DNA of 64,000 nucleotides, taken from Planctomycetota bacterium. Lineage in GTDB: Bacteria > Planctomycetota > UBA1135. Below are positions 23,819 to 61,962 of the stretch, in pieces (position 1 is the first letter of the stretch; each line of letters begins with the position of its first letter). Position numbers and translations under genes: made by a program. The stretch covers positions 150,501-214,500 of the forward strand of contig JASMMA010000004.1 of assembly GCA_030748415.1 (NCBI GenBank), given 5' to 3'. Under the pieces are notes generated by a model, which saw only the letters and a program-made list of their open reading frames with translations, ran no database searches and was not told where the DNA came from.

Positions 23819-23856
23819 AAGGGCCCGTTCTTCAAGGACGGGCCCTTGTTTTTTTT
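23819..23856 (+). terminator. rho-independent terminator
   Basis: The 10-bp stem aagggcccgt/acgggccctt has a 9-nt loop and is followed by a T8 run. Confidence 0.75.
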
Positions 23857-45359: not shown

Positions 45360-45490
45360 CTCGGAGTCAAATCGTTGCATTTTGCAACGCAACCGCTGAG
45401 GCCACTTTCCTGAGCTCACTGCACGAGGGAATCCGTTGCGCTCCCACAACACGCAAGTACCCAGAACAGAAGAGCCCCACAGCACGCAAG

Positions 45491-45563
45491 GGCCCAGAAA
45501 AAGGCGCAGAGATAGGTTTTTTGTGGCACAATAGTATCTCACTTGGCCCTTTTTCTGGGCCCT
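45491..45563. repeat. 15-bp perfect inverted repeat with 43-nt spacer
   Basis: gggcccagaaaaagg (45491-45505) pairs with cctttttctgggccc (45549-45563). The structure ends 12 nt before the target-gene ATG. Confidence 0.85.
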
Positions 45564-45575
45564 GAATAGATACCC

Positions 45576-46811
45576 ATGAAAAACCCCCTCCTCCTGACCC
45601 TTTCTCTTTTTGCAGTAGCAGCTCTTTCAAGCCCTGCATTCTCCCAAGCTACCCTCAGCGTGGACCCTGTTTATGAAGGTGGCACCGCCACCATGCACAT
45701 TACTGGAGGCTCCTCCAAATCAGCCATGATTATGTGCTACTCCTTTACTGGTGCAGGTCCTACCAGCTCGCCAAATGGCTTGGTCGTAGATCTTTCAATC
45801 CCAATTAAGCAAATGCAGCCCATCCAGTTGGACCGTACGGGCGCCGGGCAACTTGGCCCCCGTGCCATACCAGATACGATGCTGGTCGGCGACAGCGTGT
45901 GGGTCCAAGGTGTGGAAGTGGTTTTGGCAGGTAGTGTGTGGGGTATCCCCACCAACATGGTGCCGGTAACGGTGGAAAAAGAGCCCGGCCCCGACATGGT
46001 GTTTGTTTCAGGCGGCACCTTCGACATGGGCGACCACCACAATGTGGGGTGGCCACAAGAACAACCCGTCCACTCAGTAACCTTGGACTCGTTCTACATG
46101 GACCAATACGAGGTGACGAATCAGAAATTTGCCGACTACTTAAACTCGGCATATGCGCAAGGTACTGTGACAGTTTCAGGAAGCAGTGTTTACCAAGTCG
46201 GAGGAAGTGCTAATGAAATTTGTTACCTGTCTAATGGACTGACCTGGAATGGGAGTAGTTTTCAGATTGACAGTGGCAAAACAAATCATCCAGCGGTTTA
46301 CATGACTTGGTACGGCGCCTGCCACTATGCCAACTGGCGAAGTAGCGAAGATAATTTTACCCCGTGCTACGACGAAACGACATGGGATTGTGATTTCCAA
46401 GCCGACGGTTATCGCTTACCCACCGAAGCCGAATGGGAATACGCCGCTCGCGGTGGGGCGCATAACCCTTACTACCAATATCCTTGGAACCGCAATGACA
46501 TTAACTCGGGTGATGCTCAATATGGTGGTGGTGGCACAGTCGATGTCGGCAACTACGCTCCCAACGGTTACGGTCTCTACGACACTTCTGGCAATGTCTG
46601 GGAGTGGTGCAACGATTGGTACGACGGCAACTACTACTCCTACTCACCTAGCAGCAACCCCACTGGCCCTAGTAGTAGCTCGCACCGCGTGATACGGGGC
46701 GGTGGCTGCACCAATTCTGCTATCTCCCTGCGTTCGGCGTATCGGTTCAACTACTACCCGTCGGACCGCGCCAGAAGCCTCGGCTTGCGCTTGCTTGCAG
46801 TTTCTTTCTGA
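45576..46811 (+). CDS. DGR target protein: secreted FGE-sulfatase / C-type-lectin-fold protein with C-terminal variable region
   Basis: The signal peptide is MKNPLLLTLSLFAVAALSSPAFSQA. FGE-domain motifs are present (GGTFDMG, YEVTNQKF, YRLPTEAEWEYAARGG, GNVWEWCNDWY). The last 45 codons form the VR. Confidence 0.9.
   Translation: MKNPLLLTLSLFAVAALSSPAFSQATLSVDPVYEGGTATMHITGGSSKSAMIMCYSFTGAGPTSSPNGLVVDLSIPIKQMQPIQLDRTGAGQLGPRAIPDTMLVGDSVWVQGVEVVLAGSVWGIPTNMVPVTVEKEPGPDMVFVSGGTFDMGDHHNVGWPQEQPVHSVTLDSFYMDQYEVTNQKFADYLNSAYAQGTVTVSGSSVYQVGGSANEICYLSNGLTWNGSSFQIDSGKTNHPAVYMTWYGACHYANWRSSEDNFTPCYDETTWDCDFQADGYRLPTEAEWEYAARGGAHNPYYQYPWNRNDINSGDAQYGGGGTVDVGNYAPNGYGLYDTSGNVWEWCNDWYDGNYYSYSPSSNPTGPSSSSHRVIRGGGCTNSAISLRSAYRFNYYPSDRARSLGLRLLAVSF
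46677..46800 (+). repeat. DGR variable repeat (VR)
   Basis: This 124 bp aligns without gaps to TR 48378-48501. There are 19 mismatches, 17 of them at TR adenines. The 3' 19 nt (ggcttgcgcttgcttgcag) are identical in both (IMH-like). Confidence 0.9.
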
Positions 46812-46931
46812 GCTCAAGAACCAGTCATGAGCGGAGGCAGAGCGGGAATATGGTGTGGGGCGTGCGGAGCCGCCCCCGAGCGGAGCGAGAACCATTCCCA
46901 CTCCTGCCGTAGCGAATCAGAAAAATAAGTC

Positions 46932-47399
46932 ATGCAGTTTTACATTTTTTCCGTTCCTGCCCATGGGGATCCTCAAGCCATGGAGGAACTCAATCATTTT
47001 CTGCGCGCCAATCGGGTGGTTGATGTGCGCAAAGAATTGGTTAACCACGGCAATAACCCCACTTGGACCTTTTGCGTGGAGTGCCTTGAGCATGCCCCGA
47101 ATGTAGTGAAAAACCCAAAAGCAAAAGAGTCCAAAATTGATTACAAAGATGTATTGAACGCCGAGGATTTTTCCCTTTTTCAAAAATTGCGTGAGAAACG
47201 GAAGCAACTTGCCCTGAAAGATGGGTCCCCAGTTTGGTCGGTGGCGAATAATGCGCATATAGCAGCCATGGCACAGGCGCGTTGCCAAAGTAAAGCTGAA
47301 CTTTTGAAAATCGATGGCTTTGGCGAGTCCAAGGTGGACAAACACGGCCAAGCCTTTCTGGAATTAATTAAAAATGAAAAGAGCGGGAAAGCTGATTGA
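46932..47399 (+). CDS. DGR accessory protein, HRDC-domain type
   Basis: The C-terminal half (FSLFQKLREKRKQLALKDGSPVWSVANNAHIAAMAQARCQSKAELLKIDGFGESKVDKHGQAFLELI) fits the HRDC pattern. The gene overlaps the RT start by 26 nt. Confidence 0.8.
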   Translation: MQFYIFSVPAHGDPQAMEELNHFLRANRVVDVRKELVNHGNNPTWTFCVECLEHAPNVVKNPKAKESKIDYKDVLNAEDFSLFQKLREKRKQLALKDGSPVWSVANNAHIAAMAQARCQSKAELLKIDGFGESKVDKHGQAFLELIKNEKSGKAD

Positions 47400-48378
47400 A
47401 AAAATTGCCTCGTATGACAACCTTCGTTTAGCTTTTCATCTCGCCTGTCGCGGGCGGCGTATGAAACGCGAAGTCTTAAATTTTCGAGATAACTTAGATA
47501 TTGAATTGAGGGCTTTGTCTAAGGAACTCCTCGCTGGCGAAGTTAATTGGGGAGAGTATTTTAGTTTTGTAGTGCGCGACCCCAAAGTTCGCACGATTTA
47601 TGCGGCTCCATTCCGTTCGCATGTAGCCCATCACGCCATGATAAATGTATGTGGGCCAGTATTTGAACGATATCAAATTGAGGAAAGCTATGCCTGCCGA
47701 AAGGGAAAGGGCTTAGACGGTGCCCTGAATCGTGCTCGCCGTTTTGCGCGAAGTTCAAAGTGGTACTTGCAAATGGACATCCGCAAATATTTTAATTCCA
47801 TCGACCATCAGGTTTTGTTTGCCTTGCTCGAGAGGCGGTTCAAAGATCCGATAGTGTTGAATCTGTTTTCTGAAATTTTGGACACTTACCATCACACTTT
47901 GGGGAAGGGTGTTCCAATCGGAAATCTAACTAGCCAGTATTTTGCCAATCATTATTTGGCGCCTTGTGACCATTTCCTGAAAGAACAACTGCGGCAAAAG
48001 AAAGTAGTTCGTTATATGGATGACTTTGTGGTGTGGAGCGATTGCAAGGACGATTTGCTGAAAGTTCGCGAGGCAGTTAGTGAGTACTTGTCCGAGCATT
48101 TGGCTTTGGACTTGAAATACGCCCGCTTGAACAGAATGAGCAAAGGGCTGACTTTTTTAGGCTATCGCCTGTTCCCCAATCGTATCGGTTTGTCCCGTAG
48201 AACCCGCGACCGATTCAGGAGAAAGAGCCGAAAATTGGTTGAGGAATTCCATTCCGGAACGATTTCAGAACAGGATTTGGTGGCCCATCTCGACCCAATG
48301 TTAGATTTTGTGCGTCGTGGCGGATCTTTCAGATTCCGCCAGCGGTGTTTGTTAGAATTGGAGCGGGCAAACCCATAA
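47374..48378 (+). CDS. DGR-type reverse transcriptase
   Basis: RT motifs are present, including the DGR-specific IGNLTSQYFANHYL (I/LGxxxSQ) and the catalytic YMDDFV. At 334 aa its size is typical of DGR RTs. Confidence 0.95.
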   Translation: MKRAGKLIEKIASYDNLRLAFHLACRGRRMKREVLNFRDNLDIELRALSKELLAGEVNWGEYFSFVVRDPKVRTIYAAPFRSHVAHHAMINVCGPVFERYQIEESYACRKGKGLDGALNRARRFARSSKWYLQMDIRKYFNSIDHQVLFALLERRFKDPIVLNLFSEILDTYHHTLGKGVPIGNLTSQYFANHYLAPCDHFLKEQLRQKKVVRYMDDFVVWSDCKDDLLKVREAVSEYLSEHLALDLKYARLNRMSKGLTFLGYRLFPNRIGLSRRTRDRFRRKSRKLVEEFHSGTISEQDLVAHLDPMLDFVRRGGSFRFRQRCLLELERANP

Positions 48379-48501
48379 GCTCGAACCGCGTGATACGGGG
48401 CGGTAGCTGGAACAATTCTGCTATCAACCTGCGTTCGGCGAATCGGAACAACAACAACCCGACGAACCGCAACAACAACATCGGCTTGCGCTTGCTTGCA
48501 G
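48378..48501 (+). repeat. DGR template repeat (TR)
   Basis: It starts on the last base of the RT stop codon. Read in the VR frame it encodes SSNRVIRGGSWNNSAINLRSANRNNNNPTNRNNNIGLRLLA, with 13 AAC/AAT codons. Confidence 0.9.
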
Positions 48502-48575
48502 CTCAGAGTTGTGCCGGATAGCCAACTAGGAACAGGGTCTTGTCCGGCCCCTTTTCGAGGGCAAATCTGTTTTTG

Positions 48576-48632
48576 GGCTGGGTGTTTAGTCGTTTGATTG
48601 GATTATCGGACAAACTTCGCCCAGCCTTTTTT
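48576..48632 (+). terminator. putative terminator of the TR-containing transcript
   Basis: The stem ggctgggtg/cgcccagcc (one G-U pair) encloses a 33-nt structured loop and is followed by T6. Confidence 0.5.
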
Positions 48633-48793
48633 AATCGGCTTGATTTTGGCTGGAATGTATGTTGAATAGAAGTGAGATTCTAAATTACATAAAATGATTC
48701 CGCACTCTATACGAAAAAGTATCTTATCGCGGCTCAATGAATTTCCAGCCGTAGCCAAATTGTGCCAATGTTTGTCCCATCATTATTGGAAGA

Positions 48794-48892
48794 TAACCAC
48801 GGCAATAACCCAACCTGGACCTTTTGCGTGGAGTGACTTGACCATGCCCCGAATGTCGTGAAAAACCCAAAAGCAAAAGAGTCGAAAGTTGC
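48794..48892 (+). pseudogene. decayed fragment of a second HRDC-type DGR accessory gene
   Basis: This 99 bp aligns to 47042-47140 with 7 mismatches by manual alignment. One mismatch, TGC to TGA, creates an in-frame stop. No homology extends beyond the fragment. Confidence 0.75.
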
Positions 48893-48904
48893 ACCGCCTT
48901 TTTT

Positions 48905-48975
48905 TATGTGTTCATCCATGGCTCGCGGCAGTGCGGAAAGACGACTTTGGCGCTAAAGATTGGTCAGCAAACTGT
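48905..48975 (+). pseudogene. possible remnant of a P-loop (AAA/DUF4143-like) ATPase gene
   Basis: It translates to FIHGSRQCGKTTLALKIGQQ, i.e. a Walker A motif GxxxxGKT in the context typical of GPRQxGKTTLA ATPases. The frame then runs into repeat sequence with no further protein-like content. Confidence 0.35.
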
Positions 48976-49005
48976 TGATGGTCCTCTATCACCAAGCGCC
49001 AGTTT

Positions 49006-49171
49006 TAACGGCCGTTATCGCCCAAACCGATTGGGGGTGTGGGGTGGAGGTGGGGGCGCGAGGGCAATCCTATTTCGCGGAGCTTCGGAGAAACGAGCGC
49101 CTGTGGCGCGAGTTTTTCCGGCGGAGCCGAAATGGGATGTGCCCGGGAGCCCCAGCAACACGCAAGGAGCC
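49006..49171 (+). repeat. 166-bp repeat element, copy 1
   Basis: The reverse complement of 52958-53123 matches it with 7 mismatches in about 166 nt, and the central stretch of over 110 bp is identical. It abuts the folA stop codon. Confidence 0.9.
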
Positions 49172-49675
49172 CTAACCCCGGTAAACGCAAAAACAAAACC
49201 GAAGCCCGTTCTCTTCTTGAACTGGAGACTCAGACCGAAGATTCCACTGAGACTCGTCAGGAAGGAAGAAAGTGTCGCAATCAAATGTTGCGTGAACCGC
49301 AGTCAGGAAGATTGCGTTGCAATCACCATGCTTAAGAGCTTCCTGGTAAAGGGAACCGCCTCCGATGACAAAAACCTCATCGGAATCAGCTGCAAGCCCT
49401 AATGCCTCATCAAGAGAATGGGCGAGGCCAGTTCCTTCGGGCAAAGAAAAATCAGCTTGCCTGGACAACACAATATTTTTTCGGCCGGGCAATGGCCGAT
49501 ACTTTTCAGGAATGGAGTCCCAAGTTTTTCGACCCATGATGACAGCGTTGCTTCCTTTGCCCGTTGTGGTTTCTCGAAAATACTTCATGTCCGCAGACAA
49601 TTTCCAAGGCAAGTCTCCATCTTTTCCAATGCCACCCTTTTCATCCATCGCAACAATGATGGAGAACGGGCTCAC
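49172..49675 (-). CDS. folA: dihydrofolate reductase
   Basis: It contains [18 protein letters not shown]...[12 protein letters not shown]...[11 protein letters not shown]. Confidence 0.93.
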
Positions 49676-50454
49676 ACTGCAACCTCGAATTTAATGAAGG
49701 GTGCGTGTTCGTAATTATGAAGAGTAATATCTTCGAAGACGAGGTCCGCCATCGCTTTATTCGCAATCTTCACCTGAGGAAGGGTCCCAGGAGTGCGTTC
49801 GAGTTGTTTGCGTACGCCTTCAACATGGTTCAAGTAAATATGTGCATCGCCAATCGTGTGAACAAAGCAACGGGGGGTCATGCCGACTTCTTTGGCAACC
49901 ATCATGAGTAGGAGGGCGTAGGAGGCGATATTGAACGGCACTCCCAAGGCCAAATCCGCCGAGCGTTGGTAAAGCTGAAGATCCAGCTCGCCATTATTCG
50001 TGGCGTAGAATTGAAAAATTGTGTGGCACGGTTGAAGGCGCATCTTGGGGAGATCCTCCACATTCCAGGCGCTGACTAAATTCCGCCGACTGGTGGGGTC
50101 GGATTTCAGGAGGTCAATGGCTCCCTGAATTTGGTCATGACCCCGCCCACCCCAACTGCGCCATTGCGCCCCATAAATCGGACCCAGGTCGCCACTCTCA
50201 TCGGCCCATGCATCCCAGATGGGAGTGTGCTCGGTGAGGTCATCGTGAATGTTGGTGGAGCCCTTGAGAAACCAGAGAAGTTCTCGGACAACTGCCGAAA
50301 AGAGGACCTTTTTGGTGGTTAAGAGGGGAAAACCGCCCCGCAAGTCGTAGCGGCTCTGAGTACCAAAAACGGACAAAGTACCGGTACCGGTCCGGTCCGA
50401 GCGCTCTTCGCCGCTCTCGAGGACTTGGGTCAAAAGGCTGAGGTATTGCTTCAA
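49672..50454 (-). CDS. thyA: thymidylate synthase (ThyA)
   Basis: It contains [20 protein letters not shown]...[11 protein letters not shown]...[15 protein letters not shown]. Confidence 0.95.
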
Positions 50455-50519
50455 GGATTGTATCCGGCAGGGTGGATATCGGTTAGCATAGGAAAACCGC
50501 CCATGCGGTTGAAATACAC

Positions 50520-52886
50520 ATGATCATCCCCTCCATTCTTTTTTCACTTTTTCTGTTCCCCCAACAACCGGCTCCCCAAGGTGTTCCAGCCGATGCTCAG
50601 CATTTAGAGCATGGTTCTGTAATTGCCTGGACTTGGTCGGATTCTGAAGGGATTCCCCACTACAAAGTATCCCTGGACAAGGGGGAAACCTGGGGCCGTA
50701 CCCGTGAAACCTCTTACGACATCATGCTTCGCTATTCGGAGTTCGATCCGGTTGTTGATGGCGCGCCATCGGTTCCCGACGAACTGGCCGCTCCTGCAAA
50801 TAATGAACTTTGGATTGTTCAGTATGCCGGGAAAGGAGTAGAGCCTTTCCGCGAAGAGATTCGCGCAATGGGTGGAGTTGCCCACCGTTTCCTTGCGAAC
50901 CACGCAAACATTTGGCGGATGGATTCTGAAACAGCATCCAAAGTTTCTGAACTTCCCTTCGTGCGTTGGGTTGGTGCTTTCCACCCTGCCTACAAGTTGG
51001 AAAACGAATTGCTGGAGGCGTTCCTGAAAGATGAACTCCAAACTCGCCGCTACCACATAGTTGTGGGTGAGTGGGGGGAAGGCGAAAAGGTCACCCTGAC
51101 TCAAGCCCTTACGGCAATGGATGCCGAAGTGCTTTCTGCAATCCCTCAAGGGTGGATTGTGGATGCCCGATTGACCCCCGAACAGTTCCTGAATGTTATT
51201 GCGCGTAATGAAGTTGTGGGAATTGATCGCATGGGGGACCCGGAAACGGACATGAATGTTGTGCGCCAAAAAATGGGCGCCGATTATGTCGAGGGCATTG
51301 GCGGTTGGGATGGCACCGGAGTTCGCGCCGAGGTCATGGATGGCAACCTTTCAACCGGTTCATGGATTACACATTCCACTATTTGGCATGGTTCTCATTC
51401 GGGCTCTACATCCCATGGAACATCAACCTATAGCATCAACTTTTCCAATGGAACAGGCAACCCAAACCACCGCGGCGTGGCCCCTGATGCTCAAGGAATT
51501 TTTGCGGACTATTCAAGCTTTGGAAATCGTTACACCCACACTGCAGAATTGGTGGACCCAAACGACCAATACCGCGCAGTTTACCAGTCGAATTCCTGGG
51601 GCGACTCGCGAACCCGCTCCTACACTTCTAAATCACAGGAAATGGATGACATCATTTATATCAATGACATCGTGATTACTCAGTCGCAGTCTAATGCTGG
51701 AAACCAGGACTCCCGGCCCCAAGCATGGGCGAAGAATGTTGTTGCGGTGGGCGGTATTTACCACTACGGGAATACCAATGATGGAGATGACAAATGGAGC
51801 TCTGGTGGTTCAACAGGGCCAGCTGCTGATGGTCGCATCAAACCCGATTTGAGTGCTTACTATGACCAGATTCAAACTTCTGCCAGCAGTTCTTTTGGCG
51901 GAACTTCAGCTGCTTCTCCAATTGTTGCTGGCCACTTTGCTCTTCTGCACGAAATGTGGCATGACGGTGTGTTTGGAAACACTGTGGGTTCCGATGTTTT
52001 TGATAGCCGCCCGCATAGTTCAACCGCCCGCGCTCTCATGATTAACTCTGCATGGATGTGGCCATCCAATCAGGCCGACATTACCCGGATGCGTCAAGGG
52101 TGGGGCCGTCCTGATTTGGAACATATGTATGACAATGCGTTCAATACTCAGTGGGTGGATGAGGGCATTGTCTTGAAAGATATGGAGTCTTACACCACTC
52201 AGGTGGATGTGCCACCTGGCCAAACTGAATTCCGCGCCACCATGGTTTACATGGACCGTGCTGGAACGACCTCTTCTTCATTGCACCGCATCAACGATAT
52301 GTCGCTTCAGGTGACGGACCCTTCTGGCACTGTTTACTGGGGCAACAATGGTCTTTCCAACGCCAATGTTTCCAGCTCTGGCGGAACTTCCAACACGAAA
52401 GACACCGTCGAGCGCGTCATTGTTGCGAACCCAAGCTCTGGAACTTGGACTGTGACCGTTCATGCCGATGACATCAATCAGGACACTCATCCTGAAAATG
52501 GTTCCACGCCACCCGATGCTGATTTTTCTTTGGCAATCACTCCAGCTCTTCCGATTGGTGGAAATGACACCATTAACTTGATTGGCCCTACGGTTGCCTG
52601 GCCCAACACCACACTGAATTGGACCTGGACCGGCGTTCCTCCGGGAAGTACCTACTACTTTGCTTACAGCAACAGTGGAGCGGGAACCGTTTACCAAGGT
52701 CATGACTTTGACTTAGGTTTCCCACCGATAATTTTGGATACTGGAACTTCTTCCAATAATGGCTCTGGTTCCTTCACAGCAAGAGTTCCAGCCGGAACCT
52801 CCGGCCGCACGGTTTATTTTGAAACCGTTGCGACTGTCAACGGAAATTGGTACGACTCCAACATGTTGGCGTTGACGATTCTGTAA
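50520..52886 (+). CDS. secreted subtilisin-like (S8 family) serine peptidase with C-terminal beta-rich domains
   Basis: It has a signal-like N-terminus, candidate catalytic Asp (VRAEVMDGN) and His (SHGTSTY) motifs, and a clear Ser motif ([13 protein letters not shown]). Confidence 0.75.
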
Positions 52887-52957
52887 TACCGAACCCGACC
52901 CTTTTTACCGAGAAAAAAAGACCCGACTCATAAGAGGCTCCCAGGGTTTTCTATTGC

Positions 52958-53123
52958 GGTTCCTTGGGTGCTGCTGGGGCTCCCGGGCACATCCCATTTC
53001 GGCTCCGCCGGAAAAACTCGCGCCACAGGCGCTCGTTTCTCCGAAGCTCCGCGAAATAGGATTGCCCTCGCGCCCCAACCTCCACCCCACACCCCCAACC
53101 GGTTTTGGCGATATCGGCCGTTA
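52958..53123 (-). repeat. 166-bp repeat element, copy 2 (inverted relative to copy 1)
   Basis: See copy 1. It begins 72 nt after the peptidase stop codon. Confidence 0.9.
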
Positions 53124-53240
53124 GAAGTTGGTTTTAGACCATCGCCCCAAATTCCTAGTGGCGGATTTGGTGGGTCACTTATTGGCTCGAGGGTCCGGTT
53201 GCGCGTATTTTGGCGCTATGCCGCCGGAGGCGGCTTAGTG

Positions 53241-53390
53241 CCACTGGAGCGCAACGGATTCCCTCGCGCAAAAAAAAACAAACACTACCCAACAAAGACC
53301 ATCACAAACAAATCATCCACTGGAGCGCAACGGATTACCTCGTGCAAAAAAACAAACACTACCCAACAAAGACCATCACAAACAAATCAG
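53241..53390. repeat. tandem direct repeat, 2 units of about 75 bp, strongly C/A-rich on the plus strand
   Basis: Unit 1 (53241-53316) and unit 2 (53317-53390) differ only by a few substitutions and the length of an A-run. Each starts ccactggagcgcaacggatt. Confidence 0.9.
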
Positions 53391-53391
53391 G

Positions 53392-54123
53392 TCAACGCAA
53401 ATAAGTAAAAGTAGGATTGGAAAACTTGTCCTTTCGAATTTCTTGAGCGAGGGCAAGTTCGGCGGGGAGCCAATCGCCCTGGGTAAATGAGTATTGGGTT
53501 CCCTTTTCAAGAGCGGCAACGAGGTGGGGGATATGTGGCTCGGTGCCAAGGGCAGCGATGTTGGGCGTTTCTTGAGGGGCAGAAAGGACGAGGCTTCCGT
53601 GAAAGAGAACCCAGCCACTCCGCCGGCGGGCCGCCGACCCAAGGAGTTTTTTATTATCCAGTCCAATATCGAGCGGGGAAGAATCTTCAAAGCACCATGC
53701 CGAGTGAGGGACATCACTTCTCATTTTTTCACCGATGCGTAAGTTCACGGAGCCCTTTGCTTGAAGGGACAGTTCTTCCAAGAGGCAGCAATGGATTATT
53801 TCCATGGTCTTGGCTGGGCCGCCGGAAAGGAAGCCCTCCTCAGGCACGCAAAGAGAGTAGGTGAGCTCATGTTCGTGCAGAATTGCCTTCCCACCGGTCG
53901 TGCGCCGCACAATGTCACAGCCGCGTTTGCGAACTGTCTCCAGCGGCAGGTCCTCGGCCGTTTGAAAGTAGCCCAAGCTCAAAGTGGGTCGCACCCAACG
54001 ATAAAAACGCAAGCTTGGAATCGAACGCAATTCGAGGAGCGCTTCATCTCGCGCCATGTTGAGCGCGCCATCGAGAGGCGGGTCCAAAAGGAGGCGTGCG
54101 GTTTGCCCCCCGGTGCAACTCAT
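53392..54123 (-). CDS. lipoate-protein ligase / octanoyltransferase family protein (LplA/LipM-like)
   Basis: It shows the BPL_LplA_LipB pattern (LNMARDEALLE, RRTTGGKAILHEHELTYS). The ATG at 54123 overlaps the gcvPB stop (ATGA). It is the last gene of the gcv operon. Confidence 0.75.
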   Translation of the reverse strand: MSCTGGQTARLLLDPPLDGALNMARDEALLELRSIPSLRFYRWVRPTLSLGYFQTAEDLPLETVRKRGCDIVRRTTGGKAILHEHELTYSLCVPEEGFLSGGPAKTMEIIHCCLLEELSLQAKGSVNLRIGEKMRSDVPHSAWCFEDSSPLDIGLDNKKLLGSAARRRSGWVLFHGSLVLSAPQETPNIAALGTEPHIPHLVAALEKGTQYSFTQGDWLPAELALAQEIRKDKFSNPTFTYLR

Positions 54124-55577
54124 TTTTGTGCCCAAGTCAAAATGGGTTCCTTGACAGCGCGCGCTTCATCTACACGACTCACGGGCATATTTTGAGGTGC
54201 GGAGTTCAAACGAGAGTCTCCCGCTTCAGCTTCTTTAGCAATCTCAATCATGGTTTGAGCGAAGGCATCCAAAGTTGCTTTAGATTCCGTTTCGGTCGGC
54301 TCGATCATGATGGCTTCATTCACAACCAGAGGAAAGTAAACCGTGGGCGGGTGGTAGCCCCGTTCGATTAAGCGTTTTGCGATATCCATAGTGCGGATTC
54401 CATTCTCGCGCATCGATTTCTTGGGGCGGGCAACAAATTCGTGCGTGCAAATGCGGTCGTAAGGAACGCGCCAATGGTCACGAAGTTTGACCCGCAAGTA
54501 GTTCGCATTGAGGACGGCGTTTTCGGCTACGCGCAACATGCCCTCGGGGCCGAGTCGTTTAATGTAAGTCCATGCTCGCAGAAGAACGAGAAAGTTTCCA
54601 TGGAAAGCGCGCAGGCGGCCAATCGAGGAATCGTTGCCATTCTCAATTCGGTAGCCGTTCTCGTCTTCCACAACACGCGGGTTAGGAAGATAAGGTCCAA
54701 GCTCTTCAGTTACACAAATGGGGCCAGAACCCGGGCCCCCTCCGCCGTGCGGAGTGGAAAAGGACTTGTGCAAGTTCAAATGCATCATGTCCACGCCAAA
54801 ATCACCCGGACGAGTAATCCCCATGATGGCATTGAAGTTTGCGCCATCCATGTAAACTTTCCCCCCAGCTTCATGAACTGCATCGCATATTTCGCTGATG
54901 CTCTCTTCAAAGAGACCCAATGTATTTGGGTTTGTAATCATCAAGCCCGCAGTGTCGGGGCCAAGATGGGCCCGCAAGTCTTTGCGGTCGAGAAGCCCGC
55001 GCTTTGAAGATTGAATCGTGACCACCTTGAAACCGGCAAGGGTGCAAGACGCAGGGTTCGTGCCGTGGGCACTATCTGGAATCAAAATAGTGCGTCGCTC
55101 TGTTTCACCGCGCTCATCCAGCCAAGCACGCAAAACCATAAGAGCGGTGAGTTCGCCGTGCGCACCTGCAGCTGGGTGGAGCGTAACCTCGGGCAAACCG
55201 GTCGCCTCTGCAAGGTCTTCTTGAAGTTCCCACATTAAAGAGAGCGCGCCTTGAACTTCGCCATCATCTTGCCATGGGTGAAGCCCACTCCAATGGCTGC
55301 GGGCTGCAACGCTTTCATGAAGTGTTGGGTTGTACTTCATGGTGCAGGAACCCAGAGGGTAGAAATGAGTCGTAATAGCAAAATTTTTCTGACTCAAACG
55401 AGTGAAATGTCGGACAACATCGATTTCGCTCAATTCAGGTAACTTTGGAGCTTGCTCCCGGAGTTCAGATTCCGGAAGACCGGCGATTGCAGCTTTTCTA
55501 TCCGCGCCCGCAGTGCGAACACATCGGCGGCCAGGAACACTTTCTTCATTCAACAAGGGGACGATTTCCAAGTTCAT
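54120..55577 (-). CDS. gcvPB: glycine dehydrogenase (decarboxylating) subunit 2
   Basis: The start at 55577 (MNLEIVPLL) overlaps the gcvPA stop. The PLP region is HLNLHKSFSTPHGGGGPG. Confidence 0.93.
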   Translation of the reverse strand: MNLEIVPLLNEESVPGRRCVRTAGADRKAAIAGLPESELREQAPKLPELSEIDVVRHFTRLSQKNFAITTHFYPLGSCTMKYNPTLHESVAARSHWSGLHPWQDDGEVQGALSLMWELQEDLAEATGLPEVTLHPAAGAHGELTALMVLRAWLDERGETERRTILIPDSAHGTNPASCTLAGFKVVTIQSSKRGLLDRKDLRAHLGPDTAGLMITNPNTLGLFEESISEICDAVHEAGGKVYMDGANFNAIMGITRPGDFGVDMMHLNLHKSFSTPHGGGGPGSGPICVTEELGPYLPNPRVVEDENGYRIENGNDSSIGRLRAFHGNFLVLLRAWTYIKRLGPEGMLRVAENAVLNANYLRVKLRDHWRVPYDRICTHEFVARPKKSMRENGIRTMDIAKRLIERGYHPPTVYFPLVVNEAIMIEPTETESKATLDAFAQTMIEIAKEAEAGDSRLNSAPQNMPVSRVDEARAVKEPILTWAQK

Positions 55578-56935
55578 AGTGAAATCTCCATGCGGAATGT
55601 GTTTCGAGCTTGGGCGCAAAGGCGTTTGATGTCTTCGGGCCGCGTTCGTTCGGTACAAGCGAGGGTGAAAATGCCCTCCATGCCTTCGTACCATTTGCTC
55701 ATAGGAAGGACTGCCTGGATACCTGCCTGACTGAGGGCAGTTTTGAATTGGGCGACGGCTGGCGCTCCACCGGCAGCGCGGAATGCGACCTCGTTGAAGA
55801 ATGGGCGATTGGGGTAGGCGAGTTCAAGGCCATCAACTGCACACAATTCCTCGGCAAGTTGAAGGGCGCGCTGTCGCGAGACGCAGGCGATTTCTTCGAG
55901 CCCCTGAGGCCCAAGAGCTGCGAGGTGAATGCACCCTCGAAGGGCCATGAGAGCATTATTCGTGCAAATGTTGGATGTGGCCTTTTCGCGGCGAATGTGT
56001 TGTTCGCGTGTTTGGAAAGTCAGGGTGTAAGCGGTTCGACCATCTTGGTCCACACTTGCGCCCACGAGTCGTCCAGGAATTTTGCGCACAAACTTTTGGC
56101 GGGTAGCAAAGAAGCCAAAGTGAGGGCCGCCATAACTCATGGGGACACCCAAGGGTTGGCCCTCTCCTACAACAATGTCAAAACCGGCCGCACCAGGTGA
56201 GCGAAGAAGTCCCAAGGCGATGGGGTTCACCGATGCAATCGCAAGGGCTCCCGTTTCTTGGCAAGACGCCGCGACCGGATCCAGGGATTCAACATTTCCC
56301 AAAAAGTTGGGTTGTTGAACCAATACCGCAGCAGTTTCAGGGTTCACGAAACCATTCCAATCAGTAACGCCATCTCGAAGCGGTGCCTCGACGATTTCAA
56401 TGTTTTGATATTTGAGATAAGTTTGAATGGTAGCCCGCGAATCAGGGTGAAGGCCTGCAGAAACTACGACACGCTTTCGGCGTGTAGTAGATGTTGCAAG
56501 TAGTAATGCTTCTGCACAAGAGGATGCGCCGTCATACATGGACGCGTTTGCGACATCCATGCCGCAGAGTTCTGCAATCATGGACTGAAATTCGAAAATG
56601 CTCTGAAGGGTACCCTGCGAACATTCTGGTTGATAAGGAGTGTAAGCGGTTAGGAATTCAGACCGCCCCGAAAGTTGATCCACGATTGATGGCCAAGAAT
56701 GGTCCCAGGTTCCACCACCGAGGAAGCAAGAACCATCCGCAGCGGAACGGTTCCAGGAACCTTTTTCTTTAAGCTGGCGATCTAGGTCCTGTTCGGTCAG
56801 GCCTCCCTCAATTTCAAGTGGACGATTGAGCTGGATAGCCTCAGGAATATTTGTAAATAGCTCCTGGATGTTTTTGGCGCCCATGTCACCAAGCATCTCC
56901 AATCGCTCTTGGTCAGTGTTGGGGATGTAAGGCAT
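55574..56935 (-). CDS. gcvPA: glycine dehydrogenase (decarboxylating) subunit 1
   Basis: It begins MPYIPNTDQERLEML and contains TAYTPYQPECSQGTLQ. Confidence 0.93.
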   Translation of the reverse strand: MPYIPNTDQERLEMLGDMGAKNIQELFTNIPEAIQLNRPLEIEGGLTEQDLDRQLKEKGSWNRSAADGSCFLGGGTWDHSWPSIVDQLSGRSEFLTAYTPYQPECSQGTLQSIFEFQSMIAELCGMDVANASMYDGASSCAEALLLATSTTRRKRVVVSAGLHPDSRATIQTYLKYQNIEIVEAPLRDGVTDWNGFVNPETAAVLVQQPNFLGNVESLDPVAASCQETGALAIASVNPIALGLLRSPGAAGFDIVVGEGQPLGVPMSYGGPHFGFFATRQKFVRKIPGRLVGASVDQDGRTAYTLTFQTREQHIRREKATSNICTNNALMALRGCIHLAALGPQGLEEIACVSRQRALQLAEELCAVDGLELAYPNRPFFNEVAFRAAGGAPAVAQFKTALSQAGIQAVLPMSKWYEGMEGIFTLACTERTRPEDIKRLCAQARNTFRMEISL

Positions 56936-56940
56936 TTCAG

Positions 56941-57324
56941 TTATTGGACAGATTCGACGAGCTTTTCGTAGGCTTCGGCATCGAGGAGGCCGGCGACAGA
57001 ATCAGAACCGGAAACTTTTAGTTTCAAGAGCCAGCCATTTCCGAATGGGTCCTCTTGAAGTTGCGCCAGATTGTCGGCAAGTTCGGTATTGACCTCAGAA
57101 ATTTCACCTTCAACTGGGGAAGAGAGATCCGATACGGCTTTCACAGATTCAACTTCACCAAAGTTCTCGCCTTTGGAAATGGAATCTCCAGCATCGGGTA
57201 GGTCAAGGTAAACCAATTCGCCAAGTTGTTCGATGGCGAAATCCGTAATGCCAATGGTGACAGTGTCGCCTTCGAGTTTTGCCCACTCGTGGCTTTCAAG
57301 GTAAAAACGATCTTCAGGGCGCAT
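56941..57324 (-). CDS. gcvH: glycine cleavage system H protein
   Basis: The start at 57324 gives MRPEDRFYLESHEWAKLEGD. The lipoyl-Lys motif is VESVKAVSD. Confidence 0.93.
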   Translation of the reverse strand: MRPEDRFYLESHEWAKLEGDTVTIGITDFAIEQLGELVYLDLPDAGDSISKGENFGEVESVKAVSDLSSPVEGEISEVNTELADNLAQLQEDPFGNGWLLKLKVSGSDSVAGLLDAEAYEKLVESVQ

Positions 57325-57331
57325 GTTTGAA

Positions 57332-58417
57332 TCAGTCGCGTGAGCGATGAGGTACAAAGGGGAGAGTGGAAACTTCGACGGGCATTTCTTTGCCGCGGAA
57401 GCTAACAGTGAAAGGGCCCTCGAGGTTTTTTTCAACGAGAGCTGTAGCGATGGGCTTATCTAAGTTGGCGGACCAAATTCCTGAGCAAATGGTGCCCACT
57501 TCCCGGCCGTCGCAAAGAACAGGATAGCCTTCGCGAGGGACCCGCTTCTCGGCCGTGAAACCGATAATTTCGCGCGTGGGTTCGGGGAGGGAACGAAGGG
57601 TGTCGGAACCAACAAAGTTGCGTGTTTTCCAGCCTCGAATCCCGAACCGAAGGCCTGCCTCAAAAGGATTAACTTTTTCGTGAATTTCGTGGCCGTAGAG
57701 GGGGAGGCCGGCTTCGAGGCGGAGGACATCCCGCGAGCCAAGGCCGACAGGAGCGGCGCCCAATTCCAGGAGGCGGCTCCAAAGTTCAGTTGCCTGATTG
57801 GGTTGAAAAAAGATTTCGTAGCCGTGCTCCCCTGTGTAGCCAGTGCGGGCAATGGTGATGGGGCCGATTTTGGGGATTTCGAGAGTTGCTAAATCCAGAA
57901 AGGCGGGGCAGAAACCGGAACGGCCCGAGAGAGCTTCCAGAATTTCGCGCGAGCGGGGGCCCTGCAGGGCCAAAATCCCACCGCCATCTTCAGTAACATC
58001 TTCGAAAGATGCATCGATCATCCGTTTGGATAGGGTGTCGAGGTCGCGTTGGCGGTTCGCCGCATTGACGACCATAAAGAATTCTTCCTCTCCGGTGCGG
58101 TAAACGATGAGGTCATCTAGGATTCCAGCATCCTGCTGAAGTAAAAGGCTGTAGCGGGCCTTGTTTAGAGAGAGGTCGTCCATGCGAGCACCGAGGGCGG
58201 AATCGAGCTCTTTTTCAGCTTGGGGACCACGAAACCAAAAGCGCGCCATGTGGGAAACATCGAAAAGGCCGGCACCAAGTCGAACTTTTTTAGATTCTTC
58301 CAAAATCGACCCATAATCCAGGGGCATTTCCCAACCGGCAAATGGAACCAACTTTGCGCCGGCGGCGTGGTGGGCGGCGTGGAGGGGAGTTTGGTGAAGA
58401 GTGGAAGTTTCGGACAT
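57332..58417 (-). CDS. gcvT: glycine cleavage system aminomethyltransferase T
   Basis: The start at 58417 gives MSETSTLHQTPLHAAHHAAGAKLVPFAGWEMPLDYG. The track ORF's extra 49 codons cover the riboswitch. Confidence 0.93.
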   Translation of the reverse strand: MSETSTLHQTPLHAAHHAAGAKLVPFAGWEMPLDYGSILEESKKVRLGAGLFDVSHMARFWFRGPQAEKELDSALGARMDDLSLNKARYSLLLQQDAGILDDLIVYRTGEEEFFMVVNAANRQRDLDTLSKRMIDASFEDVTEDGGGILALQGPRSREILEALSGRSGFCPAFLDLATLEIPKIGPITIARTGYTGEHGYEIFFQPNQATELWSRLLELGAAPVGLGSRDVLRLEAGLPLYGHEIHEKVNPFEAGLRFGIRGWKTRNFVGSDTLRSLPEPTREIIGFTAEKRVPREGYPVLCDGREVGTICSGIWSANLDKPIATALVEKNLEGPFTVSFRGKEMPVEVSTLPFVPHRSRD

Positions 58418-58429
58418 GGAACCAGATTG

Positions 58430-58625
58430 AGACCTGTCTGGCTGCCCATTCAGGATTCCGTCCGGCCGCGGTCCTTTTACCTGAGAGTTTGGCGGTTGCC
58501 CGCTTGCCCCTTCGGTGTCCGGGGATCCCCGGAGCTCTCCCGCAACTTTCGCTCGGATGAGCATTATCCGTCTTCCCCCAGGCTGAGGTCAACCAATAGG
58601 ACTCTGACCTAATCGGCTGGGGCAC
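58430..58625 (-). promoter_or_regulatory. glycine riboswitch (one clear aptamer, core about 58469-58542, plus an upstream degenerate stem-loop)
   Basis: The minus strand reads GCGGGAGAGCUCCGGGGAUCCCCGGACACCGAAGGGGCAAGCGGGCAACCGCCAAACUCUCAGGUAAAAGGACCGC. This matches the GGAGAG...CACCGAAGGGGCAA...CUCUCAGG.AAAAGGAC consensus, and it lies directly 5' of gcvT. Confidence 0.8.
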
Positions 58626-58843
58626 CCGCGTTCGCAAACTCCCAACGAGTAACAATTTGAAATGGAAAAACTGCTGGGGGCTCACCAAAAACAAAAAAAG
58701 TGCCTAAGTCTCTTTCTTCTAATCTTTTAGATTCCATGTGACCCAGGGGATTAGGTCAGTGTCTTAGTGGGGGCGCCCTTGACGATGGCGCCCCTAACCC
58801 CTAAGATTCCCGGCTCCCTTGTCATTCAACAAGGAATAAAACC

Positions 58844-59152
58844 ATGTCTCGTAAGTGCGAAGTTAGCGGAAAAAGTACCCGAAGCGGCAAAGCCATTGCC
58901 CGCCGTGGTCTCCCCAAAAAGAAGGGTGGCGTTGGTCTCAAAACGACTGGCCACACCAAACGCAAGTTCAAGTCGAACATTCAGAAGCTTCGCGTATTGC
59001 TTCCGAATGGAACTGTTCGTCGAATGAAACTTGCGACATCTGTCATCAAAAAAGGTGAAATCACTGTCAAGATTGACGGCGTTGAACAAACAGTTCCCTT
59101 GGTGAAAGCGCTTCGCGGTCGCAACCGTGAGTTTGTAAAAGGTCAAGCTTAA
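58844..59152 (+). CDS. rpmB: 50S ribosomal protein L28 (with C-terminal extension)
   Basis: It begins MSRKCEVSGKSTRSGKAIARRG....KRKFKSNIQKLRV. Confidence 0.9.
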   Translation: MSRKCEVSGKSTRSGKAIARRGLPKKKGGVGLKTTGHTKRKFKSNIQKLRVLLPNGTVRRMKLATSVIKKGEITVKIDGVEQTVPLVKALRGRNREFVKGQA

Positions 59153-59174
59153 GTCCTAAACATTTCCCAAACTC

Positions 59175-59216
59175 CGCCCAGAAACTTAATTTTCTAGAGT
59201 TTCTGGGCGATTTTTT
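59175..59216 (+). terminator. rho-independent terminator
   Basis: The 12-bp perfect stem cgcccagaaact/agtttctgggcg has an 11-nt loop and is followed by a T6 run. Confidence 0.75.
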
Positions 59217-59317
59217 ATTCGACACAGCCGAAAGAGTCCTTTATGAAGGTGTAGTACCTTCTTCGGGGGACACCTGTCCTCTGACTGAATTCAGATTAAC
59301 CCATTAATGGAGTAACC

Positions 59318-59635
59318 ATGGCAGCTAAGAAAAAACGCAAGGTCGCTAAGCGCAAAGCTACAAAGCGCAAAGCAACCAAACGGAAAGCTACAAAACGGAA
59401 AGCCACAAAGAAAAGGGCTACCAAAAAGAAAGCTACAAAACGGAAAGCCAAAAAGAAAAAGGCTACCAAGAAAAAAGCAACAAAGCGCAAAGCCAAGAGA
59501 AAGGTAGCCAAGAGAAAGGCCACCAAGAAGAAGGCAACAAAGCGTAAAGCTAAGAAGAAGACCACCAAGCGCAAGGCCAAAAAGAAGACTGCCAAGCGTA
59601 AGACCACCAAGAAAAAGGCCGTACGCCGCAAATAG
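59318..59635 (+). CDS. histone H1-like lysine/alanine/threonine repeat protein (putative nucleoid-associated)
   Basis: The 105-aa protein consists almost entirely of reiterated KRKATK/KKKATK units. It lies immediately upstream of HU. Confidence 0.6.
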   Translation: MAAKKKRKVAKRKATKRKATKRKATKRKATKKRATKKKATKRKAKKKKATKKKATKRKAKRKVAKRKATKKKATKRKAKKKTTKRKAKKKTAKRKTTKKKAVRRK

Positions 59636-59774
59636 TGGGCAAATTAGCCGCTTTTAGGCCAAAAGGCCAAATCAACCCTTGACGGGTTGCCAGGTCCTGG
59701 GGGAAGATGGACTCTCTCCCCAGGACCTGAACATTTCCCCCCTCTTAATAAAGTACCTACAAAGGACGAATCTG

Positions 59775-60047
59775 ATGAACAAGCGAGAATTAATCGACTA
59801 CGTTTGCGAAGAACTTGAAACTACCAAGTCTTCCTCCGAAGAAATTGTGAACACCGTATTCGACGGCATCCAGTATGGCGTTAAAAAAGATGGAACTGTT
59901 TCCATTGCTGGCTTTGGCTCCTGGAACAAGCGTAAGCGTGCAGCTCGCATGGGCCGCAATCCCCAGACTGGTGAGGCCATCAAGATTAAGGCAAGCAAGT
60001 CTGTTGCCTTCAAGCCTGCCAAGGCTTGGAAAGAAGATCTGAACTAG
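59775..60047 (+). CDS. hup: DNA-binding protein HU
   Basis: The ATG at 59775 gives MNKRELIDYV...GFGSWNKRKRAARMGRNPQTGEAIKIKASKSVAFKPAKA. The protein is 90 aa. Confidence 0.9.
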   Translation: MNKRELIDYVCEELETTKSSSEEIVNTVFDGIQYGVKKDGTVSIAGFGSWNKRKRAARMGRNPQTGEAIKIKASKSVAFKPAKAWKEDLN

Positions 60048-60065
60048 AGTTAGTTCTTCTTTCAT

Positions 60066-60099
60066 GCGGCACCTCCTGAAAAGAGGTGCCGCTTTTTTT
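60066..60099. terminator. bidirectional rho-independent terminator between convergent hup and metG
   Basis: The 10-bp stem gcggcacctc/gaggtgccgc has a 7-nt loop and is followed by a T7 run. Confidence 0.75.
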
Positions 60100-61852
60100 A
60101 TGCTTTCAGTTGAGAGGCATTCAGGAGATTTTCAATTTCATTTTGAACTTCCTGGTCCTCAATCTTCTTGAAAAGAACTCCGGCCTCTCCCAATGCAAGG
60201 CCCGGTGAAATTTTTGCAGGTGGCGAATCCACTCCTTCCTCACCCCAGAGACTTCCATCACCCGAAGCAACATCTCCCAACATATCTCGCAGTTTTTGGG
60301 CAGAGGTTGGGCAAAACGGAGCCAATCTCCGGGATAGAAGTTCTAGATAAGCAATGCAGCGCTCCAAAACAGCAGAACACTCTTCTAGGTCGGCTTTATT
60401 CTCGGACTTGATGAGTTTCCAGGGAGCTCGGGAATCAAAAAATTGGTTCAAAGAATCACAACCAGCCATAAGGGATTGAGAAGCTTTCCGGTATTCATTT
60501 TTTTCAAGATGGGGGCCCACGGCAGCCCAGGCGCGATCAGCGTCTTTTAATGCCTGGTCGCCATCGCAGCACCCATTCGAAGATGGAACCATCGCGTCGT
60601 ACCTTTTGGCGTTAAATTTCAGAACACGGCTCGCGAAGTTGCCCAACTTGTCGGCGAGGAGGGAGTTGTTCGTGGTTTGGAAGCCTTCCCAAGTAAATTC
60701 GCTATCGGAAGTTTCTGGTGCGGTTATCAACAAATGAAAACGCGCCGCATCGGCAGAGTAGTTCTCGAAAAACTTCTCGTTGTCTAAGTACCAATTTTCC
60801 GAAGTAGAAAATTTGCGACCTTGCAAGTTGTAAAACTCATTTGCAGGAACTGACCAAGGCAAGTTGAGCGGTTTTCCATCCCATGAGTCGCCCTGCCCAA
60901 GGAGCATCGAAGGGAAAACAACCATGTGGAAGGCAATGTTGTCCTTTCCAATAAAATGCACAACTCTGCAATCAGGGTTTTGCCACCAATCGCGCCATGC
61001 CTCGAGATTTCCCTGCTTTTCGGCCCATTCCATTGTTTGAGAAATGTATCCAATGGGCGCATCGAACCAGACATAGAGAACTTTCCCTTCTTCGTCTGTG
61101 ATTCCATCAGGCAATGGCACACCCCAAGGTAAATCCCGCGTGATGGGTCGTTCTTGCAAATCTTTGAGCATAGCTTTGACATGGCCATGTACGTTTGGTT
61201 TCCAATCTGCGTGCGGGCGGCTGGAATCCTTGCCGGTGTACCAATCTTCAAGGCCCAGCTCCTGAATTTTCGGCAAATCCAAATACCAATGACGAGTATC
61301 TTTCAGGATGGGTTTCGAGCCATCAATTAAGCTCGTTGGGTTACCCAGCTGGCTAGCATCAATCCAAGTTCCGCAGGCAGGGCATTCATCGCCCCGAGCT
61401 TTTTCGTGCCCACAGTCCGGACATGTTCCCTGTAGATAACGGTCCGGCAAGAACCGGCCACTTTCTTCGGAAAACCATTGCTTTTCGACTCGATCTTGGA
61501 CGAGCTTTTGCTCAAGAAGGTGCGCGAAGAAAGCCTGAGCCGTTTTCTCGTGGTGTGGACAGCGGGAAGTTCCGCTGAAAATGTCGAAGTGAATCCCAAA
61601 TCGATCAAAGAGGGCCCTGATTTCATTGTGCCATTTATCCAAATATTCGCGGTAGTCACTTCCCTCCTGCTCGGCTTTGAGAGTGATGGCGACCCCATAT
61701 TCATCGGTTCCGCAAACATAAAGCACATCGTTCCCCGTCATGCGCAAATAGCGCACATAAACATCAGCGGGAAGGTAGGCACCCGCCACATGGCCAAAGT
61801 GAATGGGGCCATTGGCGTAAGGAAGCGCAGAAGTCACCAGGAATTGGGCCAT
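60098..61852 (-). CDS. metG: methionine--tRNA ligase
   Basis: The start at 61852 gives MAQFLVTSALPYANGPIHFGHVAG (HIGH-type motif). Zinc-knuckle CPDCG...CPACG and a KFSTS (KMSKS-type) motif are present. Confidence 0.93.
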   Translation of the reverse strand: MAQFLVTSALPYANGPIHFGHVAGAYLPADVYVRYLRMTGNDVLYVCGTDEYGVAITLKAEQEGSDYREYLDKWHNEIRALFDRFGIHFDIFSGTSRCPHHEKTAQAFFAHLLEQKLVQDRVEKQWFSEESGRFLPDRYLQGTCPDCGHEKARGDECPACGTWIDASQLGNPTSLIDGSKPILKDTRHWYLDLPKIQELGLEDWYTGKDSSRPHADWKPNVHGHVKAMLKDLQERPITRDLPWGVPLPDGITDEEGKVLYVWFDAPIGYISQTMEWAEKQGNLEAWRDWWQNPDCRVVHFIGKDNIAFHMVVFPSMLLGQGDSWDGKPLNLPWSVPANEFYNLQGRKFSTSENWYLDNEKFFENYSADAARFHLLITAPETSDSEFTWEGFQTTNNSLLADKLGNFASRVLKFNAKRYDAMVPSSNGCCDGDQALKDADRAWAAVGPHLEKNEYRKASQSLMAGCDSLNQFFDSRAPWKLIKSENKADLEECSAVLERCIAYLELLSRRLAPFCPTSAQKLRDMLGDVASGDGSLWGEEGVDSPPAKISPGLALGEAGVLFKKIEDQEVQNEIENLLNASQLKA

Positions 61853-61962
61853 GGCGGCACAGGATACGGTCTCCACCGTCTTTCCCCTTCTTAGGGGGGA
61901 GCCTAAAGTGTGTGCGGCTTGTGCGCGCCACCCCCAAATCCAAGCGCGCCCAAACCCATCCC

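Follow-up and report, generated by a model that had tools for sequence, protein, structure and literature searches.

Two inverted copies of a hairpin-forming intergenic repeat at convergent gene junctions of an uncultured marine planctomycete: a candidate two-sided 3'-end module

What kind of element stands in two nearly identical, mutually inverted copies on either side of a short gene block, and does it do anything there? The question is raised by a stretch of 64,000 nucleotides (the window; contig JASMMA010000004.1 of assembly GCA_030748415.1, positions 150,501 to 214,500 of the forward strand) from an uncultured marine Planctomycetota bacterium, in which two such copies, E1 and E2, bracket folA, thyA and an S8 family peptidase gene. 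An earlier note on this DNA had offered three interpretations: an element of the 3' untranslated region (3'-UTR), a family resembling miniature inverted-repeat transposable elements (MITEs) or repetitive extragenic palindromes (REPs), or recombination substrates that could invert the segment between the copies. These interpretations are supported in part, since the 3' position holds and the fit to a repeat family is partial, but the inverted isoform was not seen. The inverted repeat itself is real and well defined. The element could well be a lineage-specific structured intergenic repeat, similar to REPs and bacterial interspersed mosaic elements (BIMEs) or to enterobacterial repetitive intergenic consensus (ERIC) sequences, which serves as a two-sided 3'-end module between converging operons. 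The features on which the argument turns are as follows.

49003-49171, + strand (G-rich, better-folding sense): element copy 1 (E1), between the template repeat of a diversity-generating retroelement (+) and the folA stop codon (-)
52958-53126, - strand (G-rich sense): element copy 2 (E2), between the peptidase stop codon (+) and lplA (-)
49053-49157, + strand: identical core of 105 nt, a long imperfect hairpin; E2 equivalent 52972-53076

A repeat search returned E1 and E2 as inverted arms of 169 nt each, 95% complementary and with 3786 nt between them, the longest inverted repeat of the window. Compared base by base, the copies differ at 8 of 169 positions (49005, 49015, 49023, 49030, 49052, 49158, 49162 and 49169), and the 7 differences counted earlier over 166 bp (49006-49171) were recovered. 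The longest identical run measures 105 nt (127 nt with one mismatch allowed) and thus falls short of the central stretch of over 110 bp that had been claimed. None of the differences lies in the 105-nt core and all eight are in the outer 64 nt (P ~3e-4 under uniform placement). No similarity between the flanks of the two copies was detected beyond 49003 and 53126. A 19-mer of the element matches the window only at E1 and E2 (0.05 matches expected by chance), and neither blastn nor a covariance model found a third copy in the window.

Purifying selection against any change at all in the core, neutral G-U or compensatory ones included, seems an unlikely account of this identity. It is probably simpler to assume that the arms have undergone gene conversion or that the core was copied very recently. 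If gene conversion does occur, occasional crossover, and hence inversion of the segment, must also be possible.

The identical core coincides exactly with a hairpin of ~105 nt, which is strong and strand-biased. In 147-nt segments the G-rich strand (+ at E1, - at E2) folds at -80 kcal/mol in E1 and -85 kcal/mol in E2 (z -5.8 and -7.8), and the C-rich strand, which is the sense of the folA and peptidase transcripts, at -55 and -62 kcal/mol (z -3.0 and -4.7). The better-folding G-rich strand is therefore the opposite of the one chosen earlier, and the imperfect 15-bp hairpin described on that occasion exists but is merely the tip of the ~105-nt structure. On the G-rich strand the hairpin contains 4-5 G-U pairs, a tandem G-A mismatch and zero A-C mismatches. 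The fold is asymmetric because the G-U pairs and the tandem G-A become C-A and U-C mismatches on the other strand. This mismatch asymmetry is suggestive of selection on the G-rich strand, though it is no proof of it.

A separate oddity of the hairpin is the heptamer GCGGAGC, found on both sides of its central internal loop (49075-49082 and 49121-49127 in E1; 53047-53054 and 53002-53008 in E2). The pair forms a direct and not an inverted repeat, which is unexpected in a simple palindrome and for which the analysis offers no explanation; the heptamer could be a protein-binding motif.

Two parts of the element bear on how transcripts might end at it.

49087-49119, both strands: hairpin tip GGAGAAAC-GAGCGCC-TGT-GGCGCGAG-TTTTTCC, flagged as terminator-like; E2 equivalent 53010-53042
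49031-49051, + strand: G-rich tract, C-rich and G-free on the other strand; E2 equivalent 53078-53098

The tip is a GC stem between A-rich and T-rich runs, and a terminator scan flagged it on both strands of both copies. In each copy GCGCC-TGT-GGCGC is followed by GAGTTTTTCC on one strand, and GCGCC-ACA-GGCGC by TCGTTTCTCC on the other. A stem-loop with an A-run and a U-run on both strands, at a site between convergent genes, is what is expected of a bidirectional intrinsic terminator, and with its GC stem set between A-rich and U-rich runs the tip resembles an intrinsic terminator from either side. Downstream of the hairpin in the C-rich sense comes a tract of 21-26 nt, C-rich and without G, which appears to resemble a Rho-loading site for the folA and peptidase transcripts.

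The genes that surround the two copies place both of them at convergent junctions.

49172-49675, - strand: folA (Pfam DHFR_1)
49672-50454, - strand: thyA (Pfam Thymidylat_synt)
50520-52886, + strand: S8 family peptidase gene (Pfam, homologues)
53392-54135, - strand: lipoate-protein ligase gene (lplA-like), the final gene of the gcv operon, facing the peptidase gene across E2
48378-48501, + strand: template repeat (TR) of the diversity-generating retroelement (DGR), which ends 501 nt short of E1 and shares its strand with the G-rich sense of E1

The folA, thyA and S8 peptidase block between the arms was confirmed by Pfam. E1 directly adjoins the folA stop codon (TAG, complement of 49172-49174), and E2 starts 71 nt past the peptidase stop codon (52886); the gene positions given earlier hold, with a distance to E2 that had been put at 72 nt. 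To the left of E1, on the + strand, lies the DGR (FGE-sulfatase-type target gene, HRDC accessory gene, reverse transcriptase (RT) gene and TR), and to the right of E2, on the - strand, the lipoate ligase gene and the glycine-cleavage operon. Both copies are thus found between convergent genes, the DGR (+) and folA (-) at E1 and the peptidase gene (+) and lplA-gcv (-) at E2. The outward genes, folA and the peptidase gene, read the element in one common sense, as had been pointed out, but this is not decisive: the inward operons, the DGR and lplA-gcv, also read it in a common sense, the opposite one, which folds far better. Because each copy is flanked by convergent units, context alone does not settle the sense strand. 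The 3'-UTR interpretation is affected accordingly: the position fits and the tip is terminator-like on both strands, but the same-sense argument for it does not decide the matter.

Syntenic relatives were found via homologues of the peptidase. The closest (loci L009, L010, L021 and L022) shows 89% amino-acid and 78% nucleotide identity, and more distant ones (L012-L017) 66-67% identity. All relatives contain folA (-), thyA (-), the peptidase gene (+), lplA (-) and the gcv genes in the same relative orientation as the window, whose orientation is therefore ancestral. In the closest relative the spacer between tRNA-Gln and folA is 51 nt long and that between the peptidase gene and lplA 55 nt, and nucleotide similarity to the window ends at both stop codons (folA and peptidase). 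No trace of the element was found at either orthologous site of the closest relatives by blastn or covariance model, and the relatives' loci (~175 kb) contain no copy. Absence from the closest relatives at both sites points to a recent, lineage-specific gain. The peptidase-lplA spacer is 505 nt in the window versus 55 nt in the closest relative. E1 is an exact synteny break: the relatives have cinA and tRNA-Gln beside folA, and the window has the DGR and unrelated core genes, with neither cinA nor tRNA-Gln present anywhere in it.

More distant relatives carry an extra gene of 576-584 amino acids between the peptidase gene and lplA (4329-6083 in L012; 12383-14113 in L013), which is missing from the window and from the closest relative. 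The peptidase-lplA spacer is thus a site of recurrent gain and loss.

The element does not stand by itself, as parts of it and shorter modules next to it recur in other intergenic sites.

49149-49176, + strand: module B at the 3' edge of E1 (CCCAGCAACACGCAAGG); E2 equivalent 52953-52980 (- strand)
45420-45500, + strand: module A (45420-45444) and two B modules (45440-45467 and 45473-45500), upstream of the DGR target gene
53241-53389, - strand: two tandem 76-nt units (44-nt GU-rich module T plus module A), between the lplA stop codon and E2

Module A is 25 nt long and recurs at 45420-45444, with two B modules directly after it. The short piece of the element that had been noticed at 45471-45494 is indeed there; it is module B, with a second copy at 45440-45467. 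A consensus pattern of module B gives 4 matches in the window versus 0.08 expected. Outside the window, a 1.8-kb contig (L020) contains cinA, 80% identical to that of the relative, then tRNA-Gln and, after 8 nt, the first 29 nt of module T (the stretch at 1776-1812 after tRNA-Gln), where the contig ends. Another contig from that sample codes for a protein with an identical counterpart in the window, so L020 is very probably from this organism, and at least module T is then dispersed beyond the window. The tRNA-Gln gene is the immediate neighbour of folA in the relatives, and the two have been separated in this lineage. All modules share the relative orientation of the element's G-rich sense, co-directional with the upstream gene (with a caveat that informative cases are few). 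These data are best read as a small mosaic family of intergenic repeats in this planctomycete, with the element as its largest module.

A promoter-like TTGTGG...TAGTAT is enclosed by the arms of a perfect 15-nt inverted repeat (GGGCCCAGAAAAAGG / CCTTTTTCTGGGCCC) at 45489-45562. The repeat lies just upstream of the start codon of the DGR target gene (45576) and overlaps the second B module.

Searches elsewhere did not reveal further copies. Nothing in Rfam matched the element, even with the cutoff relaxed to E <= 10, and the only Rfam match in the window at gathering score was a glycine riboswitch. A covariance model derived from E1 and E2 was run on the window and 18 loci (~240 kb) and recovered E1 and E2 only. 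A 20-mer scan of GTDB representatives (one genome per species) produced one chance match, in an unrelated ORF otherwise dissimilar to the window. The scan of JGI metagenome contigs produced four chance matches and also missed L018, a contig which carries both copies; negatives from public collections are therefore weak evidence. Viral contig scans found nothing for the element, module A or module T, and blastn against plasmid and phage collections gave no match to the element. A concatenated six-frame translation of the element, aimed at spurious ORF calls on other copies, had no match at E <= 10 among 5.8 billion predicted proteins.

Several identities were tried and rejected. A small-protein gene has no supported common start codon or frame, no coding signal and no protein homologue. 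An integron attC site does not fit, as the ends of E1 carry YTAAC in direct orientation in place of the inverse core sites RYYYAAC ... GTTRRRY, E1 and E2 are mutually inverted, and no integrase was found in the ORFs tested. A retron msr-msd RNA was discarded because the element is not upstream of the RT and there is no RT near E2. No covariance-model match supports 6S RNA or another Rfam family. A canonical G-quadruplex motif occurs in E1 only, and with 7 such motifs in the window it is not distinctive.

Under the reading of the element as a two-sided 3'-end module, each copy would fill the spacer between two converging transcription units and stop or pause polymerases arriving from both sides, and the hairpin would shield the upstream mRNAs against 3' exonucleases, in the manner of the REP/BIME and ERIC elements of enterobacteria. 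Termination or transcript stabilisation would be its most likely role. The element would have arisen after the split from the closest sampled relatives, with the core kept identical by conversion or recent copying as outlined above. Some observations weigh against this account. Canonical terminators elsewhere in the window, such as 23819-23847 and 60066-60092 with their stems of 10-13 bp and 7-8 T, are stronger than the tip, whose U-run begins 3 nt past the GC stem. The terminator scan was modestly enriched, with 12 found versus 7.0 +/- 2.8 in shuffles. In addition, only two 169-nt copies are known, both within the 64-kb window, and the claim of a repeat family rests on the shorter modules.

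Known systems share some of these properties. In E. coli, REPs are reported to act as partial, partly Rho-dependent terminators as well as mRNA stabilisers, and both genes of a convergent pair tend to be more highly expressed where a REP lies between them. Stem-loops between convergent genes position the collision and termination of converging polymerases. Like REPs, which often lie between convergent genes or in 3' UTRs, the element is non-coding, hairpin-forming and intergenic. Like BIMEs, it belongs to mosaics of several short modules (here A, B and T) that vary between close lineages. PMC3733652 describes REP units as palindromes of 20-40 bp with a GTAG or CGTC tag. The hairpin of the element, in contrast, is ~105 nt long in a 169-nt unit, and GTAG, CTAC, CGTC and GACG are absent from both copies. 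REPs also occur in hundreds of copies and are linked to REP-associated tyrosine transposases (RAYTs), whereas the element has two known copies and no RAYT was seen among the window ORFs tested.

The ERIC sequences of enterobacteria, also called intergenic repeat units (IRU), are 127-bp imperfect palindromes in transcribed intergenic regions. The element resembles them in size class, in forming one long imperfect hairpin, in its intergenic position and in presence or absence at orthologous sites. There is no sequence relationship, the phylum is a different one, and the copy number of the element was counted in the window only. ERIC is not known to contain an embedded motif of A-run, GC stem and U-run. 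Such a motif is typical of bidirectional intrinsic terminators, which have a GC stem-loop with A-rich and U-rich flanks, are detected on both strands and lie between convergent genes. Ordinary ones are 30-40 nt long and not part of a repeated 169-nt unit, and the U-runs of the element are short (UUUUU and UUUCU) and offset by 3 nt. The Correia elements (CREE) of Neisseria are intergenic, 100-155 bp long, form a long hairpin when transcribed, affect transcript ends and stability and mark rearrangement breakpoints, all of which recalls the element. Their clear terminal inverted repeats, TA target duplication and copy number in the hundreds were not seen for the element.

Of the rival accounts, the one that survives best is a neutral by-product of rearrangement, in which ~170 bp were duplicated in inverted orientation during reshuffling and the hairpin is incidental and without function. 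This is unlikely, though it retains appreciable weight: E1 sits exactly at the end of synteny, E2 lies in a spacer that has grown from 55 to 505 nt, and there are two known copies only, with no public homologue detected. Such an origin does not account for differences that are far from uniform, with 0 in the 105-nt hairpin versus 8 in the 64 flanking nucleotides, or for an extreme and strand-biased structure (z down to -7.8). Both copies landed in convergent spacers with no gene damaged, and nearby short modules are repeated elsewhere too, which also argues for something more than a by-product.

A less probable explanation is a non-autonomous mobile element (a MITE or a palindrome-associated derivative of IS200/IS605) whose transposase is encoded elsewhere in the genome. 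The element occurs here but at neither of the orthologous sites in the relatives, its copies are near-identical, its size and hairpin are MITE-typical, and short-read contigs break there: one Logan contig (L003, k=31) stops at 49128, the very point at which an assembly graph would branch at the repeat. However, the outer ends have no terminal inverted repeats (the first 35 nt match the reverse complement of the last 35 over 5 nt at best), and no direct repeat indicative of target-site duplication was found in the flanks of the copies, whose edges are fuzzy. The edges are also the most diverged part, whereas the ends of MITEs are usually the best conserved. Domains of transposases (Y1 transposases included), recombinases, invertases and integrases were all absent from the window ORFs tested, in agreement with the earlier statement that no transposase is present. 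Moreover, there are two copies in 64 kb and zero in ~175 kb of the relatives' loci. The MITE- or REP-like interpretation hence stands in so far as the element is absent in relatives and shares modules with other intergenic sites, one of them outside the window. Against it are the missing terminal inverted repeats and GTAG/CGTC tag, the target duplication that was not seen at the fuzzy edges, the transposase that was not found and the two known copies. Membership of either family is not claimed, since size, tag and terminal inverted repeats did not fit and no target duplication was seen.

It is improbable that E1 and E2 are a pair of paralogous small RNA (sRNA) genes on the G-rich strand that are convergent with folA and the peptidase gene and act as trans or antisense regulators. 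The G-rich strand folds much better than its complement, the core is perfect and the flanks drift as in sRNA paralogues, and UUUUU follows the hairpin tip on this strand. A search for upstream sigma-70-like promoters returned 0 sites in 48400-53600, Rfam gave no match at the threshold above, and the relatives have no homologue. Furthermore, the U-run is inside the long hairpin, so a terminated RNA would miss the 3' half of the structure. Quite improbable is the related idea of a gene for a structured RNA of ~135-170 nt from the G-rich strand that processes the 3' end of the DGR template RNA or acts as an antisense regulator of the folate/thymidylate and peptidase genes. As E1 is located 501 nt downstream of the TR on the same strand, it could define or process the template RNA 3' end. 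If this were true, the strand-specific fold, perfect core and lack of an Rfam family would make it a new planctomycete RNA class.

The orientation of the segment could be compared between assemblies. Contig L018 (JGI 3300035204, 15.8 kb) is collinear with 46701-62529 of the window and spans both copies, and L002 (NCBI metagenome-assembled genome GCA_030747345.1) spans E1 in the same arrangement. No inverted isoform of the 3.8-kb segment was found in these and the window, three independent consensus assemblies which cannot exclude a minor isoform. The inversion substrates proposed earlier are mechanistically possible but have one orientation in three assemblies and all relatives and no recombinase gene among the ORFs tested. 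Programmed inversion of the folA-thyA-peptidase segment, for which 105 bp of perfect inverted identity would be ample for RecA-type recombination, the identical core with diverged edges looks like a gene-conversion tract, and all genes would stay intact because both arms are intergenic, is the least probable of the readings, as the arrangement is the same in the window, L018 (both arms) and L002 (arm 1) and is the ancestral one of all relatives, no invertase or integrase is nearby, and no promoter-gene relationship inside the segment would change, leaving no obvious switch logic.

The DGR beside E1 spans 45576-48501, with its variable repeat (VR, 46677-46800) in the FGE-sulfatase-type target gene, and it appears to be active. 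The window and the otherwise identical L018 have 21 differences, all in the VR at 46704-46779, and 19 of the 21 are at TR adenines; between TR and VR, 17 of 19 differences are at TR adenines. The accessory protein has an HRDC domain and is not Avd-like. A 98-nt direct repeat, 93% identical (47042-47139 and 48794-48891), has one copy in the HRDC accessory gene, 242 nt past the VR end, and the other 293 nt past the TR end. With a copy after both VR and TR, the TR region looks like a duplicate of the VR and its downstream flank, or the reverse.

The remainder of the window is ordinary chromosome (mreBC-PBP2-rodA, trk, RND efflux, ftsY, nusB, metG). The glycine riboswitch (Rfam RF00504, 67.8 bits; 58459-58552, - strand) is upstream of the gcvT-gcvH-gcvP operon, whose lplA faces E2. 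Between the L28 and HU genes, a coding repeat with a 15-nt period (59333-59632), rich in AAG, AAA and GCN codons, encodes a small Lys/Ala-rich, histone-H1-like protein, which is present in the relatives too.

Proteobacteria, Neisseria and streptococci have well-described structured intergenic repeats, but to our knowledge such repeats have hardly been described in Planctomycetota. Here a structured repeat was recently gained at two convergent junctions, one of them a synteny breakpoint, with a hairpin like a two-sided terminator, and it breaks short-read assemblies at this locus. If the proposed function is true, the element would show cleanly, in a natural setting, how a repeat can insulate converging transcription units, and it would serve as a marker for recombination-driven rearrangement in an uncultured marine lineage.

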